In this document: positions 6,328-54,746 of the stretch, piece by piece
Numbering within the stretch: position 1 is the first letter of the stretch
Layout of the letters: each line of letters opens with the position of its first letter
From: a virus
Length of the DNA stretch: 64,000 nt
Direction: 5' to 3' (one strand)
IMG/VR virus record: IMGVR_UViG_3300045988_182851
Location: 39,491-103,490 of that record
The notes under the pieces: generated by a model
The model's database searches: none
What the model saw: the letters and a program-made list of their open reading frames with translations, nothing else
What the model was told of the DNA's origin: nothing
Made by a program: the position numbers and the translations under genes

Positions 6328-6615
6328 TTACTTGTCTTCAAATGAAGCAGTTGCACGAATGTTGAGCCTTCTGTTATAAAAATATCCCTCTACTTCTTTT
6401 CGGACAATATCATTAACTGCTTTGGTTAAAGCTTTATCAACTCTATCCATAATCATTTGTTCAAAATCAATGCCCTTGATTTTACTTTCAATCGCTTGAA
6501 TTACTTTATCATCTATATCTTTCAACACCAGTTCTTTAAGTTCCTCTTTATTTAAACCAGCTTCACATAACATTTGTCTTGCTTCTTGTCTTAAAGCGAT
6601 TTCTTCTATTCTCAT
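6328..6615 (-). CDS. hypothetical protein (95 aa)
   Basis: minus-strand ORF. Confidence 0.4.
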   Translation of the reverse strand: MRIEEIALRQEARQMLCEAGLNKEELKELVLKDIDDKVIQAIESKIKGIDFEQMIMDRVDKALTKAVNDIVRKEVEGYFYNRRLNIRATASFEDK

Positions 6616-6703
6616 TTTTTTTACCTCCCAAGGAAACCAATAATTCTTATTTGTTTATTCTTCTCTTACATTTACTTCGTAGCTGCTCATCTTGCATGAC
6701 TAA

Positions 6704-7177
6704 TTACTCAGGGCAGTTTTTCTGAAGCTTTTGCTTATATAAGACTTCATCAACTATATCTGTAAAATTATAACCGAAATAATTATCATTCAGATAAGAA
6801 TATATATTACTGTAATTACATTTTATCTCTGTCTCAAATTCTAAGTTATACAAAAAAGTATTAACAAATGGATAATCATCCTGAAGCCAGATATCAAGAT
6901 AAAGATCCTTTATTATATAAATCCTAATATCTTTATCTTTATATTCATATGTCCAACACATAAATGTATATTTATCTTCAATATATTTTTTTAGTTCTAA
7001 CAGATAAAAATATCTGTATACCCAAAAAGAATAATCTTCATCTGAAGTAGTATCTGAATGTAACTCCAGTTTACATACATCTATCTTTTTATTTATATCA
7101 GTCAGTATCTTACTCTTTAATTTATTGACTTTTTCCTGTCTTTTTGATTCATCTGAAATCTTTTCATAACCATTCAT
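6704..7177 (-). CDS. hypothetical protein (157 aa)
   Basis: minus-strand ORF. Confidence 0.45.
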   Translation of the reverse strand: MNGYEKISDESKRQEKVNKLKSKILTDINKKIDVCKLELHSDTTSDEDYSFWVYRYFYLLELKKYIEDKYTFMCWTYEYKDKDIRIYIIKDLYLDIWLQDDYPFVNTFLYNLEFETEIKCNYSNIYSYLNDNYFGYNFTDIVDEVLYKQKLQKNCPE

Positions 7178-7405
7178 AAAAAATTCTCCTTCATATGTTT
7201 TTTAAGCTTTGCTGTTTTTTTATCCCGTTCAGAAAAAAGCTCTATGTCTTTATTTATCAGGTCTATTGTCTTTTCAATCATAATTTAGTTCTCCAATTTT
7301 ATTTCTTGACTTAATTATAATTATTTTATGGTAAAAACATTGTAAAAAGACTAATTAAAAGAGCTGGTACAAAAATGTATCACATTTAAGTACCAGTCTA
7401 AAAAT

Positions 7406-7945
7406 TTAAAGTTCTTTGTCAAAAATCTTTGATTTAATATTATTTGTCTTTACAAGCGGTTCATTCATAAATTCTTTATACTTTTTAGCATAATCAATCA
7501 GTGCATTATTATCATAATTGCTCTCGACTAATGCTCTGGTAAAATTACTATATTTTCCATTGCCCGGCATTAATGCTTTACATTCTTTATTCCATTCAGA
7601 TAATGTATCATAATCATAATTACATGCATCACAAAGAGCTGCAAGCTCTTCATCAGTTGTAGCATCCGAAAGGTCAATAAGCTCTGAATGAACCTTTATT
7701 AATATTTCTTTCTTCTTATCAATAACAGGTTTAATTACCGGTTCGATTGTATCTTTATCTATTTCTATAAAACCACTATCAAAAGATAACCCTGTAAGTC
7801 CACAATCAATTACTATTCCCGGATTAACAATAAAATATCTGTTGTTTACAGTAACAATATTACCTGTTACATACTGCTTTTCTTCATCTTTGGCACTGGT
7901 TCTCCAATTTATTTCCTTTGCCTTGTATATGTATGCATTATTCAT
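7406..7945 (-). CDS. hypothetical protein (179 aa; start moved to the second ATG)
   Basis: the ATG at 7966 lies inside the RBS AAAAGGAGAAAC; the ATG at 7945 has correct SD spacing. Confidence 0.5.
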   Translation of the reverse strand: MNNAYIYKAKEINWRTSAKDEEKQYVTGNIVTVNNRYFIVNPGIVIDCGLTGLSFDSGFIEIDKDTIEPVIKPVIDKKKEILIKVHSELIDLSDATTDEELAALCDACNYDYDTLSEWNKECKALMPGNGKYSNFTRALVESNYDNNALIDYAKKYKEFMNEPLVKTNNIKSKIFDKEL

Positions 7946-7978
7946 AAATTTGTTTCTCCTTTTCATTTTGATAATTTA

Positions 7979-7992
7979 TATATGACAGAAAA
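7979..7992 (-). promoter_or_regulatory. conserved promoter-like motif (plus strand TATATGACAGAAAA; CTGTCATATA in gene orientation)
   Basis: one of more than 35 copies placed about 25-45 nt before RBSs of minus-strand genes; directly follows a terminator hairpin and T-run. Confidence 0.55.
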
Positions 7993-8026
7993 AAAGGACT
8001 TACACTAAGAAATTTTTTAGTGTGAC
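7989..8026 (-). terminator. rho-independent terminator (hairpin acactaa/ttagtgt plus T-run)
   Basis: 7 bp stem with an 8 nt loop, followed on the minus strand by TTTTTTT running into the promoter motif. Confidence 0.45.
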
Positions 8027-8073
8027 AATTCTTAAATTATTGTTAAGTATATATTTTACATTTCAGTTTCTAT

Positions 8074-8127
8074 GAACTACCCGCAATCGATTTTTGTTGA
8101 ATGGAGTTTTCTTGCTATTCTTCGATA
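8074..8127 (-). repeat. R1 structured repeat, copy 1 (GAACTACyCACAACCGAC..TTGTCGG.TGGAGTTTTCTTGCTATTCTTCGATAA)
   Basis: six copies share about 85-95% identity; here it sits between the R2 promoter (8132) and the terminator (8003-8024), suggesting a stand-alone small transcript. Confidence 0.6.
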
Positions 8128-8235
8128 ATTAATATGACAGAGCTAAAATATAATTTGTCTAAAGCATAAAAAAATCGGCTTATCCCACGAAGCTTTAAGC
8201 TTCGGGGTTTTGCCGATATTATTTGATATTATAAA
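8125..8235 (-). repeat. R2 terminator-promoter cassette, copy A (also at 33685..33810 inverted)
   Basis: about 110 nt nearly identical to the reverse complement of 33685-33810; GC-rich nested hairpin atcggc..cccacgaagcttTAAagcttcgggg..gccgat, T-run, then the CTGTCATATTAAT motif. Confidence 0.6.
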
Positions 8236-8239
8236 ATCT

Positions 8240-8518
8240 TCAATATCCAAGTTTTTGCATTTTTTCTATGTTAAATTTCCAATAAGTTACATTTAGCACA
8301 CTATATCTTTTAATAGCATCTTGTTTTAATCCTTCATTTGTAAAAATCAGATCGTACTTTTTTAAATCATTAAATAGTTTCTTACTCATTCTAACTGGGT
8401 AAGATTTAAAACCTTTGTTCTTTTCTTTCGTAATAATTTGATAACAAGCTCCATTATCCAAAATTAAATCATTATTATCAATATTAAGTATATCTCTGCC
8501 TACTTTTAATTTTACCAT
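8240..8518 (-). CDS. hypothetical protein (92 aa)
   Basis: minus-strand ORF. Confidence 0.45.
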   Translation of the reverse strand: MVKLKVGRDILNIDNNDLILDNGACYQIITKEKNKGFKSYPVRMSKKLFNDLKKYDLIFTNEGLKQDAIKRYSVLNVTYWKFNIEKMQKLGY

Positions 8519-13125: not shown

Positions 13126-13276
13126 TTCAAAGGTTTAGCTTCTTAATACATTCAATACAAATATCTAAAATTTCATTTTTAATAACTTTCCATTCTTCTT
13201 CAGTTTCAATGTCATATTCTTCAAAGCCATTAGTTTCAATATTTTCGATTGTTCCTTTCTTGCTATTAAACTGCTG

Positions 13277-13639
13277 TTACAAACTAATATTGATTTCTTT
13301 TTCTATTGTATTTTTTGGAACATACAATTTAATTTCTTCAATACCTAATAAAGCCTTTTTTATCACGGCATAAGCCTGTTCATTATTGTTTAATGTCTCA
13401 TAGATTGTTACTTTATCTCTATTCATTTTGAAATACTTCTTACCACCATCTTCTGTAATTTGATAAGCAGTTATATATTCCTGTGAATCAATACTTCCTG
13501 AACCTAATACAAATGAACCTTCATATTCCTTATCCGTACTGATACTGTAAAGCTGGACTTCTTCTGTGGTTTCTTTCATAACTGCTATGACTGTAACTCC
13601 GATTATAAAATATAATATTATAGTCCCAATTTTTTTCAT
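13277..13639 (-). CDS. membrane-anchored or secreted protein (120 aa)
   Basis: N-terminal hydrophobic segment MKKIGTIILYFIIGVTVIAV. Confidence 0.45.
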   Translation of the reverse strand: MKKIGTIILYFIIGVTVIAVMKETTEEVQLYSISTDKEYEGSFVLGSGSIDSQEYITAYQITEDGGKKYFKMNRDKVTIYETLNNNEQAYAVIKKALLGIEEIKLYVPKNTIEKEINISL

Positions 13640-15615: not shown

Positions 15616-16551
15616 TTATTCTATTTTATTTAATTCACCTGATTCTTTGTTAAATATAAATATATCTGAACTCAGATAATCTTCTTCTTGCTGAATACCA
15701 AATATCTTTAATGCTATTTGAATTTCTTCAGGAGTAAATTCATTGTATTTACATATCAACAAAATATGTGCTGTAACAGGAACAATGTATAAATTTGTTT
15801 TCAATTTCTCTGAAATATTCTTAAGCAAATTATTATTCAGAATTGCACTTGTATTATAAAAGTCAATTACATTTTGAATTGCATATATTCCTTTAATACA
15901 TTTGCTCTCAAAACCACCAGAATTACTTAGAAAAAATAATTCTTTCTTTGTTTTTTCATAATTATCATTATCTGCCAGTTGCGTCAAAAAATAATCACCT
16001 AATACACTGATAAAATATTTGTTGGAATATATTGAATGAATTGCAAGATTATATAATTCGTTTTCATCAATTTTCAGTATGTCTCTCATATAGTTATTAT
16101 CAATTACAAATATTGTACCTTCTGAATTTTCTTCAGGTATGATCACATTATAAATTATTTCAAACTCATAAAATGGCCTATGAGGAATACTGCTTAAATC
16201 TTCCATATTGTCCGGCTTTTGTATTAATTGAGGCATAATATAGTGTTTTATATCATTTGAATTAATTTCTGGAGCTAAATTATTAAGTTTATATTCACTA
16301 CCATTAGAATTTTCGTTTCTATAAAATGCTTTAGATATTGACAATGCAATTTCTTCTATTGACGAATTATTTAAATATTGTTTATATAATTGATTTAATT
16401 TAAATTCTAAGGGACACATAAACTGATTTTTAGAATGAAAAATAAGCTTATCTGATGTGTAAGCTATATCTGTTGATGTAATATCTTCAATATTTTGAAG
16501 TAATTCGAATTTAAGATATTTAAGAAAATCTTCGTAATTCATTTTTTGCAT
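15616..16551 (-). CDS. hypothetical protein (311 aa)
   Basis: long ORF with AAAAGGAGAA RBS; promoter motif at 16586-16600. Confidence 0.5.
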   Translation of the reverse strand: MQKMNYEDFLKYLKFELLQNIEDITSTDIAYTSDKLIFHSKNQFMCPLEFKLNQLYKQYLNNSSIEEIALSISKAFYRNENSNGSEYKLNNLAPEINSNDIKHYIMPQLIQKPDNMEDLSSIPHRPFYEFEIIYNVIIPEENSEGTIFVIDNNYMRDILKIDENELYNLAIHSIYSNKYFISVLGDYFLTQLADNDNYEKTKKELFFLSNSGGFESKCIKGIYAIQNVIDFYNTSAILNNNLLKNISEKLKTNLYIVPVTAHILLICKYNEFTPEEIQIALKIFGIQQEEDYLSSDIFIFNKESGELNKIE

Positions 16552-16708
16552 ATAATTAGTTCTCCTTTTATTTAGTTATATTTTTAATATGACAGAAAAA
16601 ATGAATTATTATTTTACATAAAATAATTGATGTGTGTTAAAATAAGACAGCAACTAAATGTAAATGCCTTTTATTTATTAAAATATCCCGTTTTTGTGTT
16701 CTTCTAAG

Positions 16709-17121
16709 CACTTTATTGGGTATACTATGCCTTTGCTTGGGAAAAATAATAACAATATATTGTACGTTTATTGTTGTATATTAGTTTAATATGTTAACTT
16801 TATTAACAATATATAGTTATTTAAGATTTATTAAAATATAGCTAAGATACAAAAATAATAACAATATATAGATATAAAATATGGCTTAATATACATTAAA
16901 AATAACATCATTATGTTATAGAATAGAAGAATTTGTGCAATAAAATTAACAATATATAGCTAAATATTTAATACATAAATGTAATAATGATAACAATATG
17001 TAGTAATGTATTATCCGTTGCATAGCCAATAAAGTGCCTTATATGTGTCAGAATAATACCATGATGTAGTTATCATATGCTGATTTAAGAGATAAAAAAT
17101 GTTAATTTGATAACATATAAT
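16709..17121. repeat. iteron array: six direct TAACAATATATAG-type repeats (16750, 16804, 16859, 16947, 16991, 17111) flanked by inverted repeats CACTTTATTGG..ATGC (16709-16730 / 17020-17036)
   Basis: read directly from the sequence; lies in the largest non-coding stretch (16552-17830). Confidence 0.55.
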
Positions 17122-17830
17122 TGGTAATATTAGCAATTATATATGGATTAATTGGGTACAATAGACTGTATGATTAGTGAGAAAAATAAATATAACTGAT
17201 TAATGGGATATAATTATTATTTACTAAAGTTAATTAATGGAATTACTGGGAACATATATAGAAATGATAGAGTAAAGGAAATAGATCTAAGAGCAAATAA
17301 GAAAGAATTAGTGTATATGAATGCATCTATTGAGACAGAAATGGGATTACTGGACTTACTAAGGCATTTGCAGGGCGAAGAATAGATTTGTAGGAATCTA
17401 ATAATCATAATTTTTGTAATTATCATATATTATATATGAGGGAATTATATTATTTATTAGTGTATTAAAGGCATTAATTGGGATAAATGAAGTGCTTGCT
17501 AGAGACAGGTAAGGAATTGCCAGGGAAATAAACACAAAGTATATTAAGCTGATAAATGATATTGTATAAGGATATAACAATAATAGTTATACGCTTTTAA
17601 TCCTTAATAATATTCTGGCGGTTATCATATTAAGTCTTAAAACGCTATTAAGGAATAATCAAATGTATTATATAAGGCTCTAATTTTTATATTTTAATAA
17701 TAAAAAGCGTATCAATGAAAAAGAAAATAATAGAAGGGCTTTGAAGAAGGTGTATGACATATTACACTTAAAGGAAGTGTAATCATAAAAAAATACAGCT
17801 ACCTATTGATAACTGCATTTTATTTATATA

Positions 17831-18859
17831 TTACATAAAAGATTGTATACTATATCCTTTCCGTCTGAAACGAACTCTAATCTTTTTTATTGCTTTTGAT
17901 TCAATTTGTCTGATTCGTTCTCTGGAAACATTCCATTCAGTACCTATATCTTTTAAAGTTTTAACCTTTGAACCATATCCCATTCTACTCTTAATTACAT
18001 ATAATTCTCTAGGAGTGAGACAATCTTCAACTTCTTTCCAAAGCAGTTCATTCATTTCTTTTTGAATAATCGTATCTTCAACTTTAGGTTCAGGAGCTTC
18101 TATATAATCAGCCAAACACGAATCGTCATGGCCTTCATCACTTTGAATAGGTGCATCTAATGAAACCAATTCATTAAAGCTTTGAATATGTACAAGCATT
18201 TCTTTAGTTAAAAGAGGATATCTTTGTTTTACTACATCATATAATTCATCAATTGTAGGTTTTCTTTGAAGTTTATTAGTTAAATCCACAAATGTAGTCT
18301 TAACAAAAGAATCCTGCTCTCTTACATGTACAGGGAATCTAACTAATAAATCATAATTGGCTAATTCTCTATATATACTCTGTCTAATCCAATGAGTTGC
18401 ATAAGTTGAAAATGCATATCCTAATTTATAATCAAACATTTGTATAGCTCTGTATAACCCGAAAATACCGGCCTGACATAAATCATCCATTTCAAAACTT
18501 TGCGTTTTAGCTGTAACAGCTTTAGCAATACTGATGACTAAACGCATATTAGATAAAATCAATTTTTCAGTTATTTCTTTTTTCTTTTTAGGATGTTTTT
18601 TTATCTCTTCAAATAATTTAAGAGTTTCATCTTTGGATAAAACCGGATAATCAGCAAATGATTTAATATAATAAGTTATATTATTTTCTAATAATAGTTT
18701 CTCTTTTTCATTTAAAATCTCTTTATCATTTAAAATATCGGTATAATTATCCTCTGATAAAATATTTATGTTTTCTACTGATTTATTTGTGTCAAATAAT
18801 TCATCAACATATTCATCTTTATTGTTTTTTTTATTTAATAATAAATTCTTATCTGCCAT
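17831..18859 (-). CDS. RNA polymerase sigma-70 family factor (342 aa)
   Basis: region 2 LILSNMRLVISIAKAV...QAGIFGLYRAIQMFDYKLGYAFSTYATHWIRQSI; region 4 HTH TLKDIGTEWNVSRERIRQIESKAIKKIR. Confidence 0.85.
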   Translation of the reverse strand: MADKNLLLNKKNNKDEYVDELFDTNKSVENINILSEDNYTDILNDKEILNEKEKLLLENNITYYIKSFADYPVLSKDETLKLFEEIKKHPKKKKEITEKLILSNMRLVISIAKAVTAKTQSFEMDDLCQAGIFGLYRAIQMFDYKLGYAFSTYATHWIRQSIYRELANYDLLVRFPVHVREQDSFVKTTFVDLTNKLQRKPTIDELYDVVKQRYPLLTKEMLVHIQSFNELVSLDAPIQSDEGHDDSCLADYIEAPEPKVEDTIIQKEMNELLWKEVEDCLTPRELYVIKSRMGYGSKVKTLKDIGTEWNVSRERIRQIESKAIKKIRVRFRRKGYSIQSFM

Positions 18860-19270: not shown

Positions 19271-20182
19271 TTATTGCTCCTTAATTTCTATATTGATATT
19301 TTCAAAACACTTAATTACAAAATAAATTAAACTCATTATGCAGACTATTAAAATGCATACCTGTAAATATATATTTGTTATAAAAAACGTAAATGGTATT
19401 AATGCCACACAGTTTATTAGAATATGATATAAGCTGCTAAGTTTAATACCATATTTATCTCTTACAGCACCTAACAAATATCCGCCAAAAGCATATATAG
19501 GGAATAAAATAAAATTAAAATGAATTATTCCAAATAAAACTGCTTGGATTATATTTGCACATAATTTATTGTTGCTTGCTTTATATGCATAGCCATAAAT
19601 TATATATCTAAAAGTCAATTCCTCAATAATAGGTGCCACAAAAGTTGCTATTATTGTAGATATAATTGTTTTTATTCCTAAACTTCCATAATCAATATCT
19701 GATACATTTACAAAATGCATTTGAATTCCTGAAATAAGCTGCAATATTACAGAAGTTAATATGAAACAAAATACAAAATTCCAATTTACTACTAATTTAT
19801 TTTTCATAAACAAATCTTTTTTATAATTGTAAAATGAGCTTTTTATACAAATAATGCACATAACAAACATTAATGTATATGTTGATATTGTGTAAATTAA
19901 TCGAAATCCTTCATAATCTATTTTAGTTGAAATTCCTCCTGCATCATTCATATACATATTTAATAGACTGTCTATAAATGTTGCAATAAACATTGAAAAT
20001 AAAATTATAAAAACAGAAATAATAAATGGAATAAAAATCTTTATATACTGTTTTGATTTTGAAAAGAAAGAATTACTTTTCATTTTGTTTTTTACCATAA
20101 AATCCATATAAGAATTTAAATCATGCTTATTTTTTTTATTTCTTAATTCCTTAATATTACTGTTATTGTTACTAAGTATCAT
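19271..20182 (-). CDS. CPBP-family (CAAX protease / Abi) intramembrane metalloprotease
   Basis: multiple TM helices; motif 1 PIIEELTFRY (EExxxR), motif FGIIHF (FxxxH). Confidence 0.65.
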   Translation of the reverse strand: MILSNNNSNIKELRNKKNKHDLNSYMDFMVKNKMKSNSFFSKSKQYIKIFIPFIISVFIILFSMFIATFIDSLLNMYMNDAGGISTKIDYEGFRLIYTISTYTLMFVMCIICIKSSFYNYKKDLFMKNKLVVNWNFVFCFILTSVILQLISGIQMHFVNVSDIDYGSLGIKTIISTIIATFVAPIIEELTFRYIIYGYAYKASNNKLCANIIQAVLFGIIHFNFILFPIYAFGGYLLGAVRDKYGIKLSSLYHILINCVALIPFTFFITNIYLQVCILIVCIMSLIYFVIKCFENINIEIKEQ

Positions 20183-20294: not shown

Positions 20295-21980
20295 TTAGCA
20301 TTTGCGTACTATTGAAGGGGCTGACATATCAGGGTTAATGAATTTCTTACATAAATGTTCAATTCCAGTTGTTGAATCAAGCCAATATAAATAATCTCCA
20401 TCAACGTCCACCAGATATTCATTAATAGAATCAAGAACATCGTTTACTTCAGAAACAGTACATATAAATCTGTATGAAGACTTATTTTTCTTTAAAGGTT
20501 TAACAGACTTAACAATAATCTGATATACAGTTTCGTCATCTGAAGATCTAAAATCATCTACTTGAATTTTTCCTGATAAACATAATTTAGCATCATTAAC
20601 AAGTAAGTCTCTAATATTCGCATAATCCTTAGAAAAACATACACCATTAATAGAACCTGTTTTATCTTCTACCTCAAAAGTTACCCATTCATATCCATTT
20701 CTATCCTTTCTTACAACAAGATTTTTAATTATACCAGATACATCGTTAACTTCTGTTGAAATATCAGAAATGGGATCTGTATAAATATTATACTCATCAA
20801 TTGGATGCCCTGTAATATAAACGCCTAACACTTCTTTTTCATCATTTAGAATCTGACCTAAATCATCTTCTACATAATCAATATCTATATTTTCAAGATC
20901 ATCTTCTAAGCTTTCTATAACTGTCTTAGCTGAATTGATACGTTTAATTATGGAATCTTTAGTTGGTATCTTTTTTGAAGTAACTTGAAAGGAAATATTT
21001 TCTTCTGAAATTCTTTCCTTAAACTCATCAAGATCAATATAATCTTCCACAAATTCAATAACTTTACTTGCGTTTTCAATAAACTTACTCTTCTCTCTGA
21101 TTTTCTTAATTGTATCCTGAATTTCTTTCATACAAATCATATCTAATGATATCATTGTTCTTGTATAACCAAGGCAATCGAAAGCACCTGCTTTAATTAA
21201 GGAACTTAATGCTTCTGCATTAATATTTGTTCGTTTGATAAAATCCTTAATATCAGAATATTCTCCATTAACATTTCTATCTTCAATAATTTTAGCTGCT
21301 TCTGCTCCAACATTCTTAATATTACTCAGACCATACAAAATGTTCCCATCTACAACATCACAATGTAAATTTGAAGCATTAATGTCCGGAGGCAATACCT
21401 TTACTCCAAAATCAAGGGCATCACTAATATCATCAGCGACTTCATCAATCTTATCAGTATAATTTATTACATTTGTAAGATAATAAGCCGGATAATAATA
21501 CTTAAGAAAAGCTGTCCAATATGATGTAACAGCATAAGCAGTAGCATGTGACTTATTAAACGCATACTTAGCAAAGTCAACCATCGCATCCCAGATTTTA
21601 TGAGCAATTTCTTCTGGTATTCCATTTGCAATACATCCTGGTACTAATGCTTCATTTTCTTTTTTAGTATCAGCATTGCCATATACAAAAGTGTGTCTTT
21701 CAGCATCAATTTCATCCTGATGTTTTTTTGACATAGCTCTACGGACTAAATCAGAACGCCCCCATGTATATCCTGCTAAATCACGAACAATCTGCATTAC
21801 CTGTTCCTGATAAACTATCTGTCCATAAGTAGTTGACAAAATTGGCTCTAATTGAGGACATAAATATTTAATCTTAGATGCATCCTTTTTACCTTCTATG
21901 AAATCAGGTATAAACTTTTCAGGACCAGGACGATATAAAGCATTCATTGCTATTAAATCTTCAATACCTGTTTTATTCAT
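20295..21980 (-). CDS. dnaE: DNA polymerase III alpha subunit, C-terminal part (fingers C-terminal half, HhH, OB fold), separately translated
   Basis: DLIAMNALYRPGP, YGQIVYQEQVMQI, FAKYAFNKSHATAYA, VLPPDINAS, HhH NIKNVGAEAAKII, OB GVYITGHP; own RBS AAAGGAGAAATTTAAAATG and own promoter motif at 22017. Confidence 0.85.
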   Translation of the reverse strand: MNKTGIEDLIAMNALYRPGPEKFIPDFIEGKKDASKIKYLCPQLEPILSTTYGQIVYQEQVMQIVRDLAGYTWGRSDLVRRAMSKKHQDEIDAERHTFVYGNADTKKENEALVPGCIANGIPEEIAHKIWDAMVDFAKYAFNKSHATAYAVTSYWTAFLKYYYPAYYLTNVINYTDKIDEVADDISDALDFGVKVLPPDINASNLHCDVVDGNILYGLSNIKNVGAEAAKIIEDRNVNGEYSDIKDFIKRTNINAEALSSLIKAGAFDCLGYTRTMISLDMICMKEIQDTIKKIREKSKFIENASKVIEFVEDYIDLDEFKERISEENISFQVTSKKIPTKDSIIKRINSAKTVIESLEDDLENIDIDYVEDDLGQILNDEKEVLGVYITGHPIDEYNIYTDPISDISTEVNDVSGIIKNLVVRKDRNGYEWVTFEVEDKTGSINGVCFSKDYANIRDLLVNDAKLCLSGKIQVDDFRSSDDETVYQIIVKSVKPLKKNKSSYRFICTVSEVNDVLDSINEYLVDVDGDYLYWLDSTTGIEHLCKKFINPDMSAPSIVRKC

Positions 21981-27658: not shown

Positions 27659-28414
27659 CTATGAGCATAACTTCTTAAGGTTATTCCTCATACCGGCTGA
27701 CTCAAACTGGAAAACATTCTTAGTTCTTCCTTTTGCATATACTTCTTTGTATACCTTATCAGCTTTAGGACCCTCTAATGGAATATTCATTACATCAATT
27801 ACTTCTCCTGTATCTCTCTGAATCATTCTGAGTGTGTCAGTAATAATTGTAAGAGTTTTTAATCCAAGAAAATCCATTTTTAATAATCCATTAGCTTCGC
27901 ACTGAATCATATCCATTTCTGTAGTTTTAATTCCCTTTTTTCCATCTCTAATAGGAATATAATCAGTAACATCATTACTATCATAAATAATAACACCTGC
28001 GGCATGTTGTGCGTATGTCGTAAGCATACCTTCACAATGAGCTGCAATATTAAGAATAGAAATAGCATCTGGATTACTATTATATTCATCCTTTAAGAAA
28101 TCTAACAAAGAAATGCTGTCCTGAATATTAATGCCTAATTCATCAACCTTATTAGTATCTTTCATGCCAACAATATCTTCAAAATTAGTTGCTTTAGCAG
28201 GCACTTTCTTACGAATCTGATCTCCTAAAGATAAGAATTTCTTTTCATCATCATAAGCTTTCTTTCCATAATATCTTGCAGCATCTCTGATAGCACCTTT
28301 AGCCTGCTGTCTTGATTCTGTAATAATTCCAACAACAGCTTCACTACCATATTTAGCTCTTACATACTCAATTGTCTTTTCTCTTACTCCAAGAGCAAGA
28401 TCGCTATCGATATC
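27659..28414 (-). CDS. dnaE: DNA polymerase III alpha, exon 2 of the N-terminal gene (palm C-terminal part and fingers N-terminal part)
   Basis: begins DIDSDLALGVREKTIEYVRAKYG (compare DIDIDF..R.EVI.YV..KYG), ends FQFESAGMRNNLKKL then CS and TAG TGA; the ORF-track start at 28417 is a TTG inside the intron. Confidence 0.8.
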   Translation of the reverse strand, partial: DIDSDLALGVREKTIEYVRAKYGSEAVVGIITESRQQAKGAIRDAARYYGKKAYDDEKKFLSLGDQIRKKVPAKATNFEDIVGMKDTNKVDELGINIQDSISLLDFLKDEYNSNPDAISILNIAAHCEGMLTTYAQHAAGVIIYDSNDVTDYIPIRDGKKGIKTTEMDMIQCEANGLLKMDFLGLKTLTIITDTLRMIQRDTGEVIDVMNIPLEGPKADKVYKEVYAKGRTKNVFQFESAGMRNNLKKLCS

Positions 28415-29354
28415 CAAATATACCCCTACTTTCGTAGTACTTTAACACTTGTATAAGTGGGATTAGACTATATCTCAATATAATATTGTTAATATTATAT
28501 TTCAACGCACTTCCAACTGTAACCATTCTCAGTTGTACTCCTTAAAAAGGATAGTCGTTACACTTTAAAATAAATAATATTATATACGAACAATTTTTAA
28601 GTCATTCCATTTTAAATATTTATGCATTGAGGAATAACTTGCGTTATATTTTTCTTTAGCATATCGAGCTGCTGCTAATATGCTTTCAAATCTATCAATT
28701 AATATATCTCCTTTATATAATTTACAACACTTATAATTTCTTACAGGAGACATAGTTTTATAACTATCATATAAATTGTCTTTTCTAGTACACCATTCTA
28801 AATTATTCACCTTACAATTTTGTTTATTTTTGTCTTTATGATTAACTTCTGGTAGATTATAAGGATTAGGAATAAAATTCATCGCAACTAATCGATGCAA
28901 TAAATATTTTTTATTATCTAATCTTATCATCCTGTAATTCTTTTTACTATCTAAAAAAGGTTTAAGTTGTCGAATTTTCCCTTGTTTTATACTAAAAATC
29001 TTTCCATATGAAGTTATGTAATATTCGTGGTGATTTTTAATTTCTATTATTTTTTCACCTTTTTCAAGGAATGATGTAAAATTGATATAATCTATCATAA
29101 ATATACACCTCCTTATTTATATAATATTATTTATAATCTTAGCACGGTATCGCCTGCTATCCTTCAATATCTTTTATATAAAAATATTAGGACCGTAGGT
29201 TCTCTTACGAAGCTGCTTCGTCTATGGGTTAAGCTATATATCCTGTTGTGACACTTTATATAGCAGTCTTATTCAACTTCTACCGTTAGCACTTAATAAT
29301 AAAATATTAAGCACACCTCTGAGTTAGAGTCCACGCTGAACGCCCAATATATTT
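28415..29354 (-). other. group-I-like self-splicing intron (about 940 nt) interrupting dnaE between SMP and DIDSD, carrying an HNH homing endonuclease ORF
   Basis: exon 1 ends ..ATGCCT (U before the 5' splice site); the intron ends in G before GATATCGAT; joining restores the conserved ERVSMP|DIDSD; GC-richer structured segments at 29100-29350 and 28420-28580. Confidence 0.7.
28580..29098 (-). CDS. HNH homing endonuclease (HNH_3 / AP2-type, intron-encoded)
   Basis: HRLVAMNFIPNPYNLPEVNHKDKNKQNCKVNNLEWCTRKDN and an N-terminal YITSYGKIFS-type motif; RBS AAGGAGG before the ATG. Confidence 0.8.
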   Translation of the reverse strand: MIDYINFTSFLEKGEKIIEIKNHHEYYITSYGKIFSIKQGKIRQLKPFLDSKKNYRMIRLDNKKYLLHRLVAMNFIPNPYNLPEVNHKDKNKQNCKVNNLEWCTRKDNLYDSYKTMSPVRNYKCCKLYKGDILIDRFESILAAARYAKEKYNASYSSMHKYLKWNDLKIVRI

Positions 29355-31148
29355 AGGCATACTTACTCTTTCTGGATTTAAGAATCGTTCAAAAATCAGA
29401 TTATACTTAAATGGATCAATTCCGGTAATACCAAGTAAATATGTAACCAATGAACCGGCACCTGAACCTCTTCCAATGCCTATTCCAATTCCGGTATTAT
29501 AATTGTGAGCCTTAACATACTCTTTTGCACCTTCAATTGTTAAAGGTACTTCTGATAGTTTATCCATAGGTACTAATCCACAAATTCTTCCATATTCCAG
29601 GAAGTCCTTTACAATTAAATGATAATCGGCAAAGCCCATCTGAATAATAATATTAAGTTCGTATTCCATTCGTTTCTGATGTTCTTCATCCCATCCTTTT
29701 CCGTTAGGATATCTCCAATTAATTCCCTTAATTGCTTCAGATCTTAATAATTCGTTTGAGTCCTTGTTCTTATCAAATACTGGATAATGATTAGATTTTT
29801 CTGGAATATAAGCACATCTTTTTCCAATTACATTTAAGTTATTGAGTGCTTCTGCAACCTGATCATCTGTTAATATAGCTGATAAGGCCTGAGCAAGTTC
29901 GTAAGGTGTTTTTACATATAACTCTTTATCTGATTCCGACTCACTTATCTTAATAAATCTTAAAAACTTAGCTACATTACGCATATCAATACTTCTATCA
30001 GAATTATCTGCCATATGTGCATCATTAGCAGCAACTAATGGGATATTATGCTTCCTTGCTAACTGAGCTAACACAGGATATGTTCTGCTTTCCATTTCAA
30101 GCCCATGATTCTGAACTTCAATGTAATAATTACCTGCTCCAAAAATTTCCTGATAAAAAAGCATTGTCTTTTCTGCTTCAGACATTAATTCTATTGGGCT
30201 TTTCTTTAACGATTCATAATGCTGTATCTTATTTTCATGATTAATGTATTCCTCTACCTTAAGACTTATATCCTTTAACTCGGCTTTCTTAGCATTAACT
30301 AATTTTCTGACATTAGGAATTTTATCTTTAGCTTCCAGAATTTTATTATTTATCTCTTCATATTCGTTAATCAGTTTAATAAGCTCTGGATCATCATCAT
30401 TTAAACACTTCCTTGCATCTCTTAATTTTCTTGAAATCTGTGTCCTTTCTGATTTAAGTTCCTTGGAATCACGAATATTAATCAATTCATCTAAATCTGC
30501 CGATACCCTTTCAAATTCATCTTTAGCTGAAAGATATTCTTTATCATCAGGACTTATACAATCACGTATCACTAGCTCGTCTTTTTCAGTAGTATGCTGC
30601 TGTGCTTTTCTTTCTCTGTTAATCATTTTATCCAAAACATCATCTGATAATAATTGCAGAGCTGGTGCGCCCGAAACGCAAGCTGAAGTTGCTATTATAT
30701 CACCGTTAAAGTTATATTTCTTTAAATCTGATATTGTAATAACAGGCTTTCCCATTCTTTTTTCAGAAGCCTTAGAATTTAACTTATCAATAATATGCTT
30801 GCCTCTTTCTGAAGTGGCCAACATAATCATATGGCCAATCTGCTCATTTATCTTAAATGGCGGCACTTCAATATAAGCCTCTACGCCATAAATGATATTA
30901 AATGGATGTTCTTCAGTACTTATTTTCTTAGCGTAATCAATACATGTTTGCATTGCTGAAAATGATGCATGGTCCGTAACAGCAAATTTAGTATATCCTG
31001 CATTAAATGCAGCATCTAAATAACTTTTAGGTTCATCTACGGCATCAAACAAAGAGCCTCCTGGATGGTTATGTTCACACACTGTAACTCCTGATTCAAT
31101 AACCTTTTTTGTTAATTCTCCAATTTTTACATGTTCAAACATTGACAT
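29355..31148 (-). CDS. dnaE: DNA polymerase III alpha, exon 1 (PHP domain and palm) of the N-terminal gene
   Basis: [20 protein letters not shown]; [40 protein letters not shown]; RBS AAAGGAGGAAATTTAATG; about 170 aa coiled-coil insertion inside PHP. Confidence 0.85.
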
Positions 31149-33818: not shown

Positions 33819-35375
33819 TTTTATGAAAGGCCGGGCTTTAATATGGACATAAAATCAAGCTATGCAGTTGAAGTTAAGAATATTAACAAATTGTTCAATC
33901 CAACAATTAAAATTTATAATCAGGCTGTAACTTTTTGCATCCAGGTGTTTGAAAATGAGTGGTCTGTATTAAAAGATATTAATGACTCAAAAATACAATG
34001 TGGTGTTGCAAGGAACTTAATTCATTCTACAAAGTCAAATAAAGCTAAGTATTCAGAGTTTGATAAATTGTTCCACAAAATGCCCAGCTATTGTACTACA
34101 GCAGTCATCAATGCATCTCTCGGTGTACTTAATTCTTATCATTCAAACTTACAGAACTGGTATGATGAAGGCTGCAAAGGTAATCGTCCTACATTGCAGA
34201 TTCATACCAATAAATATCCAGTCTTTTATAAAGACAACATGTATAAGTGGGCTGATACAAAAAATGCCATACTGCTCAAGCTTTTTATAAACAATGACTG
34301 GCAGTGGGTAAAGCTGCGCTTAAAACATACTGATATACAAAGTATTAAAAAGCACAGCATCAATGCAAAAATTTCTGTACCTATATTAGAAAAGAAGCAT
34401 AAGAAATGGTTTCTGCGATTTGCGTTTGAAAACAAAGCAATTTTAAATAAGACACCATTATCTAAGCAGAAAATCTTAGCAGTTGATCTGGGTATTAACA
34501 CAGATGCTACCTGTTCAGTTATGGATCATTATGGAACTGTCCTTGCAAGATGTTTTATCAATCATGCAAGTGAAAAAGACTATATTAAACATAATCTAAA
34601 CAGGATAAAAAAGTATCAGGCTGCAGGGCAAAAAGATGTGGTCCGGAAGTTATGGAGTTTAGTTAAGAATTACAATAATGAGCTTGCGTCAAAAACTGCT
34701 AATGCCATAGTGGATTATGCCAGACAATTAAATGTCGATGTTATAGTATTTGAACATCTGGATATGAAAGGCAGGAAGAGAGGATCCAAGCGCCAGTTAT
34801 TACACATGTGGAATAAGAATACTATACAGAGAATTGTCACTCATAAGGCTCATTTATCAGGTATCCGCATCAGTCATATATGTGCAAGGAACACAAGTAA
34901 GTTAGCATATGACGGTTCAGGATATGTACTAAGAGGAAAAGACGCAGGATTGCTTACATATGAACTTTGCAGATTCCAGACTGGCAAAATATATAACTGT
35001 GATTTATCTGCATCTTATAATATAGGAGCCAGATATTTTATTCGTGAAATCGAGAAATTATATACAGGGAAATCCATATGTAAAAAAATAAACATATGGT
35101 CTGATATCCAGGCGAAAGTACCTGAATGTCAAAGAAGAACACAAAATACCCTTTCAACACTAAGAGCTATACATCAATGTTTAGCAGTTTAGTGTAAAAA
35201 GGGTATGGATTCAGTCGCCTTCAATATAAAAATTGATTGTATTTAGTTTTAATGTGGTATGTCAGAGCGTAAGTTCTGATGCGCTAAGTTAAAACTGTAT
35301 AAGATGGTGGATAAAATTATGCTGAGTACAAGGCATAAGTGAATCTCCGAATCTAAAGATTCGGAGTGTGTTCAA
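33819..35375 (+). mobile_element. IS200/IS605-family element encoding TnpB only (IS1341-like), about 1.55 kb
   Basis: left end tttatgaaaggccgggc then the tnpB ATG; right-end hairpin ctccgaatc-taaa-gattcggag at 35345-35366; both ends recur in the mini copy (1741-1857) and the remnant (12848-13125). Confidence 0.7.
33843..35192 (+). CDS. tnpB: TnpB (IS200/IS605 OrfB, RuvC-like RNA-guided nuclease family)
   Basis: RuvC-I AVDLGINTDATCSV, RuvC-II VIVFEHLDM, C-terminal Cys cluster HICARNTSK...CRFQTG..YNCDLSASYNIGARYF; the only convincing plus-strand gene. Confidence 0.85.
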   Translation: MDIKSSYAVEVKNINKLFNPTIKIYNQAVTFCIQVFENEWSVLKDINDSKIQCGVARNLIHSTKSNKAKYSEFDKLFHKMPSYCTTAVINASLGVLNSYHSNLQNWYDEGCKGNRPTLQIHTNKYPVFYKDNMYKWADTKNAILLKLFINNDWQWVKLRLKHTDIQSIKKHSINAKISVPILEKKHKKWFLRFAFENKAILNKTPLSKQKILAVDLGINTDATCSVMDHYGTVLARCFINHASEKDYIKHNLNRIKKYQAAGQKDVVRKLWSLVKNYNNELASKTANAIVDYARQLNVDVIVFEHLDMKGRKRGSKRQLLHMWNKNTIQRIVTHKAHLSGIRISHICARNTSKLAYDGSGYVLRGKDAGLLTYELCRFQTGKIYNCDLSASYNIGARYFIREIEKLYTGKSICKKINIWSDIQAKVPECQRRTQNTLSTLRAIHQCLAV

Positions 35376-37626: not shown

Positions 37627-37644
37627 ATATATGACAGAAAAAAA
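37627..37644 (-). promoter_or_regulatory. conserved promoter-like motif (ATATATGACAGAAAAAAA)
   Basis: see the motif finding. Confidence 0.5.
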
Positions 37645-38882: not shown

Positions 38883-39749
38883 TTATTTTGTTTGATAAAG
38901 AAGATATGACAGAAAATTATTTACATTAGAATGTGAACTGTTATTTCTTATTACTAAAATATTTCTGATAACAATTATGAAAAATATAATACTCATTACG
39001 ATTAGACAAATATTTTGTAACATAACAGGCATAAAAGAGTACAATACACTACTTGCATTAACTCCAATATGAATTAAAATAGAGGACAATAAATTATCTG
39101 TTTTTATATATACATAGGCTAATATAATACCGAAAATAAATGCATAAGTGCTTTGAATAATATTAAAATGCACTAATCCAAAAACGAAAGCTGATATATA
39201 AATTGAGCTTACATCTGGTTTCTTAAAGAATTTGTTTTGCTTTATTATTTTTGTAATACCGTATCTAAATATTAATTCTTCAACAACTGGCGTAATAACA
39301 CCTGTTATTAAGAGTACTTGAAGCCAATTTCCGGTTACAGCAACATTCATCAAAGAATTATATGAATTAGAAACCAAATTATTAGGTAAGGAATCTATTA
39401 CCACAGAAGCTAAAAAATTCATAATAATGCCTGTTAAAATAAATGTCTTGACATCTTTTAATGATAATTTTGAAATAAATATGATTGATTTATTAACTTT
39501 ATATTCTTTAAGCATAACAAACCCAAGTATTATAATATCGGAAACAAATAATGCAGGCATAATTAATTCACTGAGCATACTAAGATAACTATATGAACGT
39601 AAATTACCTGTTTCTATACATACATATAAATTATCATACCATTGTGAGTCAGAAAACAATTTAAAAATAAATACACCCAATGTACATATAATTTGAGTAA
39701 TAAGAAAAACAAATACTATTCCAATCATCTTTGTAATTTGTTTAATCAT
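38883..39749 (-). CDS. CPBP-family (CAAX protease / Abi) intramembrane metalloprotease, second copy
   Basis: ITPVVEELIFRY and FVFGLVHFN motifs; six or more TM helices. Confidence 0.65.
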   Translation of the reverse strand: MIKQITKMIGIVFVFLITQIICTLGVFIFKLFSDSQWYDNLYVCIETGNLRSYSYLSMLSELIMPALFVSDIIILGFVMLKEYKVNKSIIFISKLSLKDVKTFILTGIIMNFLASVVIDSLPNNLVSNSYNSLMNVAVTGNWLQVLLITGVITPVVEELIFRYGITKIIKQNKFFKKPDVSSIYISAFVFGLVHFNIIQSTYAFIFGIILAYVYIKTDNLLSSILIHIGVNASSVLYSFMPVMLQNICLIVMSIIFFIIVIRNILVIRNNSSHSNVNNFLSYLLYQTK

Positions 39750-54730: not shown

Positions 54731-54746
54731 ATATATGACAGAAAAA
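54731..54746 (-). promoter_or_regulatory. conserved promoter-like motif (ATATATGACAGAAAAA)
   Basis: see the motif finding. Confidence 0.5.

Follow-up and report, generated by a model that had tools for sequence, protein, structure and literature searches.

What is the function of a 1.3-kb gene-free cassette lodged among the replication genes of a very large, AT-rich element of the human gut? The window analysed here, 64 kb (64,000 nt) of IMG/VR virus record IMGVR_UViG_3300045988_182851, samples an element of roughly 320-420 kb, and its widest gene-free region lies between a DUF5688 gene and a sigma-70 gene (Table 1). We found that this cassette carries an array of eight near-palindromic boxes, all in one orientation, spaced near multiples of 11 bp and retained in two diverged lineages. 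Our tentative reading, which we put somewhat short of probable, is that the array is an origin-like protein-DNA assembly site. The kind of feature is probably a familiar one, an iteron-like binding-site array that would be ordinary if it proved to be an origin, and it makes a well defined candidate.

The 13-mer TAACAATATATAG, allowing at most one mismatch, occurs at 16750, 16804, 16859, 16947 and 16991, always on the plus strand and nowhere else in the 64 kb; a mean of 0.78 matches was obtained from shuffled sequences, none of 100 shuffles attaining five. The repeat unit is an 18-bp near-palindrome, ATAACAATATATAGTTAT (ATAAC-N8-GTTAT), that follows a run of A or T, and eight such boxes lie on the same (plus) strand within 16749-17127. 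They were scored with a weight matrix built from 21 boxes of three lineages. Seven of the eight plus-strand matrix matches of at least 10 bits in the 64 kb fall inside the array, and nine weaker matches on the minus strand are mostly the same near-palindromic boxes read in reverse. The pattern C.W.WW.W.G, published for another purpose, returns exactly the eight array positions and none in between. A first-pass annotation of this DNA had described an iteron array here: its repeats proved real, non-random and conserved, whereas the unit it gave was too short and it missed the boxes at 16902 and 17056, so that its spacings of 54, 55, 88, 44 and 120 have to be replaced by true start-to-start distances of 54, 55, 44, 44, 44, 66 and 54 bp.

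These distances lie near multiples of 11 bp, with a phase coherence (R) of 0.98 and a peak period of 10.95 bp; in a Monte Carlo test on random positions with a period search over 10.3-11.3 bp, 0 of 5000 trials were as high (P < 2e-4). The arrangement recurs in two diverged lineages. One (L008-L012) was reached through the sigma factor (P0003, 51% identical) and the other (L020-L023) through the 131-aa protein encoded next to it (P0125, 62% identical); relative to the window, the sigma factor is ~51% and the 131-aa protein 62-64% identical. Contigs L008 and L020 each hold 6-7 boxes of the same sequence and orientation, spaced by 56, 53, 44, 45, 43 and 43 bp in L008 (R = 0.93, P = 0.005 at 10.95 bp) and by 66, 88, 55, 66 and 86 bp in L020 (R = 0.95, P = 0.009 at 10.95 bp). 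Over the 21 boxes from the three lineages, T2, A3 and G14 never vary, C5 is kept in 20/21 and A4, A6 and A9 in 19/21, and the left half, ATAACA, is kept better than the right. Loss of the repeats in related phages had been named beforehand as grounds for abandoning the array; run as a check, the comparison found the boxes kept in two lineages whose proteins are 51-64% identical.

The other large gaps of the window lack such repeat arrays, the exact box consensus appears in viral contigs only as single, unrelated copies, and a three-box pattern returned from viral contigs, among the matches listed, chance matches and 26-bp tandem repeats from giant-virus-like contigs. Two of these unrelated AT-rich contigs carry at least four tandem 26-bp repeats with AATAACAATTTATTGGTA (L107, 6910-7030; L073, 11520-11640), and the high box-matrix score of these repeats is probably a coincidental likeness.

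The cassette that houses the array is the largest gap between minus-strand open reading frames (ORFs) in the window, at 1279 nt against 945 nt for the runner-up, and at 16552-17830 none of the six frames holds an ORF, all three stop codons being numerous in each. As depletion of one particular stop codon is not seen, recoding does not account for the gap, and genes hidden by an alternative genetic code are ruled out. The first-pass annotation had taken this to be the largest non-coding region of the window, 1.3 kb long, and its plus-strand ORFs for probable non-genes, and both views are borne out. The 60-aa ORF at 17203-17385 (plus strand), which lies in the purine-rich stretch and is annotated as a gene on the L003 contig (11475-11657), is probably not a gene, since L008 and L020 have no counterpart. 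In six close relatives (L001-L006), the cassette is exactly 1279 nt long and >95% identical, and the region is also kept in L007, although an identity of >95% makes L001-L007 too close to inform on conservation. Equivalent gene-free regions of 1.25-1.33 kb occur in L008 (12027-13356) and L020 (12641-13885), where they lie one gene farther from the sigma gene than in the window.

Table 1. Features of the gene-free cassette and its flanking genes, in window coordinates
Feature	Coordinates	Strand	Remarks
DUF5688 gene	15616-16551	minus	
Whole gene-free cassette	16552-17830	no strand	between DUF5688 gene and sigma-70 gene
Promoter-like motif TTTTTCTGTCATAT(A/T), one copy	16586-16600	minus	34 nt upstream of DUF5688 start codon
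Sigma-70-like hexamer pair TTAACA-18-TAAAAT	16611-16640	minus	consensus scan, 10/12 positions; weak
Inverted repeat, left arm GCACTTTATTGGGTAT	16708-16723	no strand	
Box 1 ATAACAATATATTGTACG	16749-16766	plus	15.0 bits
Least stable 100-bp duplex of the 64-kb window	16777-16876	no strand	inside array
Box 2 TTAACAATATATAGTTAT	16803-16820	plus	20.0 bits
Box 3 ATAACAATATATAGATAT	16858-16875	plus	20.4 bits
Box 4 ATAACATCATTATGTTAT	16902-16919	plus	17.5 bits; perfect ATAAC-N8-GTTAT
Box 5 TTAACAATATATAGCTAA	16946-16963	plus	15.6 bits
Box 6 ATAACAATATGTAGTAAT	16990-17007	plus	19.6 bits
Inverted repeat, right arm ATAGCCAATAAAGTGC	17022-17037	no strand	between boxes 6 and 7
Box 7 ATACCATGATGTAGTTAT	17056-17073	plus	16.4 bits
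Box 8 ATAACATATAATTGGTAA	17110-17127	plus	weak, 9.9 bits; fits C.W.WW.W.G; in phase, 54 bp from box 7
Purine-rich, C-poor stretch	17130-17745	plus	lineage-specific short repeats, e.g. AATGGRATTACTGG at 17236 and 17340
Invariant 18-mer GTGTATGACATATTACAC	17750-17767	plus	single copy in window; third GTGTA 9 nt on, at 17776-17780
Hairpin ATTACACTT/AAGTGTAAT	17761-17783	minus	overlaps 18-mer; gene-strand fold z = -2.3
Intrinsic terminator of sigma-factor gene	17790-17821	minus	fold -17.5 kcal/mol, z = -5.2
Sigma-70 gene	17831-18859	minus	

Two further observations place the array in a setting that suits replication. Its interior holds the least stable duplex of the window, whose nearest-neighbour dG is -95.8 where the window averages -116.6 (sd 6.3), and GC content falls to 13-16% at 16750-16950. 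Around the cassette, a Pfam and PHROGs scan of ORFs of at least 100 aa revealed a replication and recombination module that comprises a DnaE polymerase (three ORFs), a 5'-3' exonuclease, two UvrD-type helicases, RecJ and RecA; the window also encodes a DnaG-type zinc-ribbon (primase-like) protein, a DNA methylase and the sigma-70-family factor. We tentatively favour an origin because the array is unique in the window, coincides with the stability minimum and lies amid replication genes. Helical phasing is a property of double-stranded DNA and, together with the dyad symmetry and conservation of the boxes, points to proteins assembled with the DNA along a single helix face. A sequence-specific protein, probably dimeric and encoded by the element, would bind the boxes; since the sites are spaced in whole turns (~11 bp), the bound proteins would line one helix face and could bend or wrap ~380 bp of very AT-rich DNA. 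Such a complex may open the least stable duplex inside the array and so permit initiation, upon which the DnaE polymerase, primase-like protein, UvrD-type helicases, RecA, RecJ and 5'-3' exonuclease of the element might assemble there.

The locus thus shows two of the marks of an iteron origin, clustered repeats found at one place in the 64 kb covered of a roughly 320-420-kb element and, within them, easily melted AT-rich DNA that is the minimum of the whole window; a third, an adjoining initiator gene, is absent, the flanking genes encoding the sigma-70 factor and a DUF5688 protein. Several further observations count against an origin. No initiator of the Rep, O-like, DnaD-like or RepA_N type was recognised by Pfam or PHROGs among window ORFs of at least 100 aa, many of which have no defined function and could include one unrecognised. 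DnaA boxes (TTATCCACA, at most one mismatch) are missing from the cassette in all three lineages, and a DnaA-dependent origin was rejected on this ground. Cumulative GC skew runs monotonically across the locus, reversing locally but nowhere reaching a turning point in the 64 kb, and the genes on both sides of the cassette share one strand. Classical plasmid origins have ~22-bp iterons in tandem, unlike the spacings of 44-88 bp here. The genes that flank the cassette vary between lineages, and the idea of a conserved binding-protein gene beside it was rejected for this reason. In a fourth lineage, L048, the cassette is absent between the sigma and DUF5688 genes (6388-8451): their ~85-nt gap holds only a terminator, the promoter-like motif and a ribosome-binding site, and neither boxes nor 18-mer occur in the 12 kb fetched of this 87.6-kb contig.

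The arrangement in L048, where the sigma and DUF5688 genes adjoin without it, indicates that the 1.2 kb is a discrete cassette, gained or lost as a unit. An insertion scar or duplicated terminator at its ends was considered and rejected: an 18-nt direct repeat (16661 and 17810) forms no terminator fold in its left copy, and L008 and L020 lack an equivalent. The first-pass annotation had offered an origin, a partition site or a packaging site. Phasing, uniqueness, the weakest duplex and the surrounding replication genes fit the first two, whereas packaging is unsupported because no terminase gene lies nearby. The evidence at hand separates an origin from neither a partition site nor an operator array, and these rivals are therefore weighed below together with the rest of the cassette.

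Beyond the boxes, the plus strand of the cassette is rich in purines (fraction 0.55-0.70) and poor in C (47 in 621 nt); no other part of the window is so biased except its only plus-strand gene. The bias is shared by L008, L020 and a bacterial contig, L017, while the sequence itself is not conserved between lineages. A CsrA-type GGA sponge was rejected here, GGA and AGGA enrichment being inconsistent between lineages. Long-range inverted repeats are found in L008 (12664-12700 with 13248-13284) and L020 (13022-13036 with 13464-13478), and both share the motif (A)AATGGATT(C/A)CC(C/T)GG, which the window carries as two direct copies, AATGGRATTACTGG, at 17236-17249 and 17340-17353; this motif could be another binding site of the cassette.

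The stretch is followed by an 18-mer, GTGTATGACATATTACAC, that is identical in the window, L008 and L020 and is matched exactly, together with a downstream GTGTA, in four contigs from bacterial genomes, in unrelated gene contexts: L016 (2516-2533), L017 (472-489), L018 (564-581) and L019 (1397-1414). L016 belongs to a Lachnospira metagenome-assembled genome and L018 and L019 to Eubacterium sp. isolates; L017, at 30% GC, was binned with Desulfovibrio piger and has at least 470 nt of purine-rich, C-poor sequence ahead of the 18-mer. A search of viral contigs gave only chance matches in GC-rich coding DNA (L014, L015). On the gene strand the 18-mer holds TGTCATA, the core of the promoter-like motif, and it includes a mini-ORF, ATG ACA TAT TAC ACT. 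Its presence in bacterial contigs could be a clue to the host or mark a widespread regulatory site. We regard it as a candidate promoter, operator or something else, and the purine-rich stretch and 18-mer could supply a primer or activating transcript, or a promoter.

These features bear on the alternative that the boxes are an operator array, bound by a repressor or activator of cassette transcription, whether of a non-coding transcript at 17130-17750 or of read-through downstream. Dyad symmetry of the boxes agrees with it, and cooperative looped binding would account for whole-turn spacing: an 11-bp period is the signature of in-vivo DNA looping, as known from the literature on AraC and lambda repressor looping. 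The strand composition of the cassette resembles that of a transcribed unit, and its invariant 18-mer, with its promoter-like core, stands directly after the sigma terminator, just as promoters do in other gene units. Yet no box lies on a recognisable promoter, the closest promoter-like motif being 150 nt from box 1; eight sites over 380 bp would be a large number for an operator, the cassette has no regulator gene beside it, and a promoter for a plus-strand transcript was not found. We consider an operator array doubtful.

At the left end of the cassette, the first ~100 nt (16552-16650) are the promoter region of the DUF5688 gene and lie outside the array. At up to two mismatches, the promoter-like motif TTTTTCTGTCATAT(A/T) has 26 gene-strand copies in the window against 6 on the opposite strand, at a median of 34 nt upstream of an ATG preceded by AAAGGAG; at up to three, 59 matches compare with 16 expected. 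Examples are found at 1579-1593, 7979-7993, 16586-16600, 37628-37642 and 54732-54746, often directly 3' of the terminator of the preceding gene, and the motif also occurs in the diverged lineage L048. No conserved -35 element can be made out, so the motif may be read by a dedicated sigma factor, perhaps that encoded at 17831-18859. The weak hexamer pair overlaps another motif, TTTTACATAAAAT (16612-16624), which is also present in L008; promoter-like matches in the region do not exceed shuffle expectation.

The inverted repeat that had been reported to bracket the array carries no weight in the argument. It exists, with 15/16 complementary positions, but at least one repeat of equal quality arises in 17% of Markov-resampled sequences, and boxes 7 and 8 lie outside it. 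In L003 and L007, G17034A weakens it without a compensating change. As its position and sequence also differ between lineages, a functional role was rejected.

A centromere-like partition site, at which a ParB-, ParR- or TubR-type adaptor would segregate a plasmid-like form of the element, is in our judgement improbable. F sopC consists of 12 repeats of 43 bp, each with a 16-bp palindrome, and palindromic boxes in units of ~43-45 bp resemble it; the array also occurs once in 64 kb. As for the carrier, collections of 'huge phages' include megaplasmids (PMC12934698), and relatives of the element encode PcfJ and DUF5688, typical of conjugative elements. A repeated array of the kind that adaptors bind is thus in place, but the partition operon of NTPase and adaptor that should adjoin it is missing: neither the window nor the 10-kb flanks of relatives encode ParA, ParB, ParM or TubZ. 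The box sequence is unlike parS, and the element looks more phage-like than plasmid-like, with Lar, YopX, an HNH-interrupted DnaE gene and unit promoters.

A third alternative concerns the host regulator NrdR. On this reading, which we hold to be very improbable, the mobile element would carry six to eight boxes for host NrdR, in helical phase and away from any ribonucleotide reductase promoter, as either a decoy that titrates NrdR or a switch that couples the cassette to the dNTP pool. As a decoy, rising copy number of the element would draw off the dATP/ATP-sensing NrdR and derepress host dNTP synthesis. The NrdR box, a partial palindrome of 16 bp, has C4, A6, A8, T9, T11 and G13 as its key positions, and NrdR sites depend on helical phase (PMC13584703, PMC12051234). 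Our box consensus, TAACAATATATAGTTA, agrees at all six positions, which in the 21 boxes hold C in 20/21, A in 15/21 (A or T in 20/21), A in 19/21, T in 18/21, T in 16/21 (A or T in 21/21) and G in 21/21. The core CAATATATAG is identical to those of Listeria nrdDG box 2 (ACACAATATATAGTTA) and a C. difficile nrdD box (ATACAATATATAGTAA), both of which depart from the array consensus only in outer bases. The published pattern is fitted by 8/8 window boxes, 6/6 in L020 and 5/7 in L008, and the best-kept positions C5 and G14 are those that NrdR needs.

Such agreement is weakened by composition, since the pattern discriminates poorly in AT-rich DNA: it matches 4.8 times per kb window-wide, and another 400-nt region has seven matches. 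Geometry also speaks against NrdR. Natural pairs lie 31-33 or 41-43 bp apart centre to centre (32-33 bp start to start in the clostridial pairs fetched), whereas boxes here are 43-45, 53-56, 66 or 86-88 bp apart, the closest L020 pair at 55 bp. The window has spacers of 28, 38-39 and 50 bp, L008 has spacers of 27-29, 37 and 40 bp, and those of L020 range over 39-72 bp; the pairing of NrdR sites at separations of 15-16 bp (or 24-27 bp) is not seen. Flanking T2, A3 and A4 are invariant or nearly so here but variable and unimportant in NrdR sites, and natural Firmicute boxes read ATAC or ACAC, not TAAC. Ribonucleotide reductase genes are missing from the window and flanks, 150 nt separate the array from the nearest promoter-like motif, and no similar array was found among the viral contigs examined. 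An element-encoded NrdR was rejected, there being no homologue in the window or fetched loci, and our literature searches found no report of NrdR boxes put to either use by a mobile element. Were this proposal true, a mobile element would here be seizing the host nucleotide supply by a new route.

A structured RNA is unlikely, and a gene for a ~1-kb non-coding RNA whose 'iterons' are repeated RNA elements is scarcely credible: plus-strand-transcript-like composition, long-range inverted repeats in all three lineages and a conserved 3'-proximal 18-mer with a hairpin would suit it, but no Rfam family matched at the gathering threshold or at E up to 5 (no known RNA family, tRNA or tmRNA was found), global structure was rejected on folding z-scores of -1.0, -1.1 and 0.0, the middle 600 nt are not conserved in sequence, the inverted repeat is at chance level without compensating changes, and 11-bp phasing belongs to double-stranded DNA, not RNA.

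The element that carries the cassette is uncultured, from the human gut, very large and, judging from its genes, phage-like; we leave it at that label because the 64-kb window contains no structural genes. GC content of the window is 27%, and nearly every ORF lies on the minus strand. The sigma protein recurs unchanged in human-gut metagenomes, on contigs as long as 422 kb, and in IMG/VR on one viral contig. No close relatives were found among GenBank phages or PLSDB plasmids, and no protein of the phage collection is more than 40% identical to DnaE. The 'Hodor' megaplasmids were rejected as an identity for the element, since their GC content is 44-47% against 27% here.

DnaE is split into three ORFs, for which the coordinates 29307-31148, 28580-29098, 27659-28417 and 20295-21980 are listed, an HNH endonuclease ORF included; the latter lies between DnaE parts 1 and 2, which are fused (849 aa) in L005, L006 and L020. 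Parts 2 and 3 are ~5.7 kb apart, separated by an RlaP-like gene, the 5'-3' exonuclease gene and a DUF3232 gene, and are adjacent in L020. The sole sizeable plus-strand gene is a TnpB/OrfB_IS605-like ORF (33843-35192); since TnpB, with or without a Y1 transposase, sits at differing places in L005, L006 and L020, IS605-type elements appear to be active in this family. Two paralogues encode CPBP/Rce1-like membrane proteases (19271-20182 and 38883-39749), and one of them belongs to a conserved block with the genes for the 131-aa protein and the sigma factor.

Elements of this 320-420-kb, AT-rich family are widespread in human-gut metagenomes. The conserved cassette of phased sites offers a concrete, clonable candidate for an origin or control centre of the family, which could help in the discovery of its binding protein, in estimating growth from metagenome read depth and in building vectors for Lachnospiraceae-like hosts.

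Comparison with known systems sets the array in context. Like NrdR operators, it shares the 10-bp core CAATATATAG, six conserved positions and integer-turn spacing, but it has 6-8 boxes rather than 2-4, spacers of 27-72 bp rather than 15-16 or 24-27 bp, and invariant, non-canonical flanks, and it does not stand at a ribonucleotide reductase promoter. With F sopC and other ParB-type centromeres it has in common ~43-45-bp units, each with a 16-18-bp palindrome, at a single locus; it differs in its box sequence, in the lack of conservation of the units outside the box and in having no sopAB- or parAB-like genes nearby. The origins of lactococcal phages (c2, sk1 and the phi31 'per' element) occupy several hundred bp of non-coding, AT-rich DNA that holds direct as well as inverted repeats, and that of c2 needs an origin transcript. 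Our locus is likewise a non-coding, AT-rich, repeat-laden Firmicute-phage region with a possible non-coding transcript, although there is no sequence similarity, the element is 10-20 times larger and the transcript is suggested by base composition only.

A further comparison is with iteron origins such as lambda ori, pSC101, R6K, P1 oriR and the lactococcal theta plasmids. The boxes described here are dispersed at 44-88 bp instead of standing in tandem at ~20-22 bp, are neither adjoined nor overlapped by an initiator gene, lack DnaA boxes, and are linked to a purine-rich stretch of 600 nt and to the invariant 18-mer. Lambda ori has four 19-bp iterons with internal dyad symmetry beside an AT-rich region. 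In keeping with such origins, the array consists of same-orientation sites in the 17-22-bp class with internal dyad symmetry, spaced in whole helical turns, over the least stable AT-rich DNA of the window and within a replication module.

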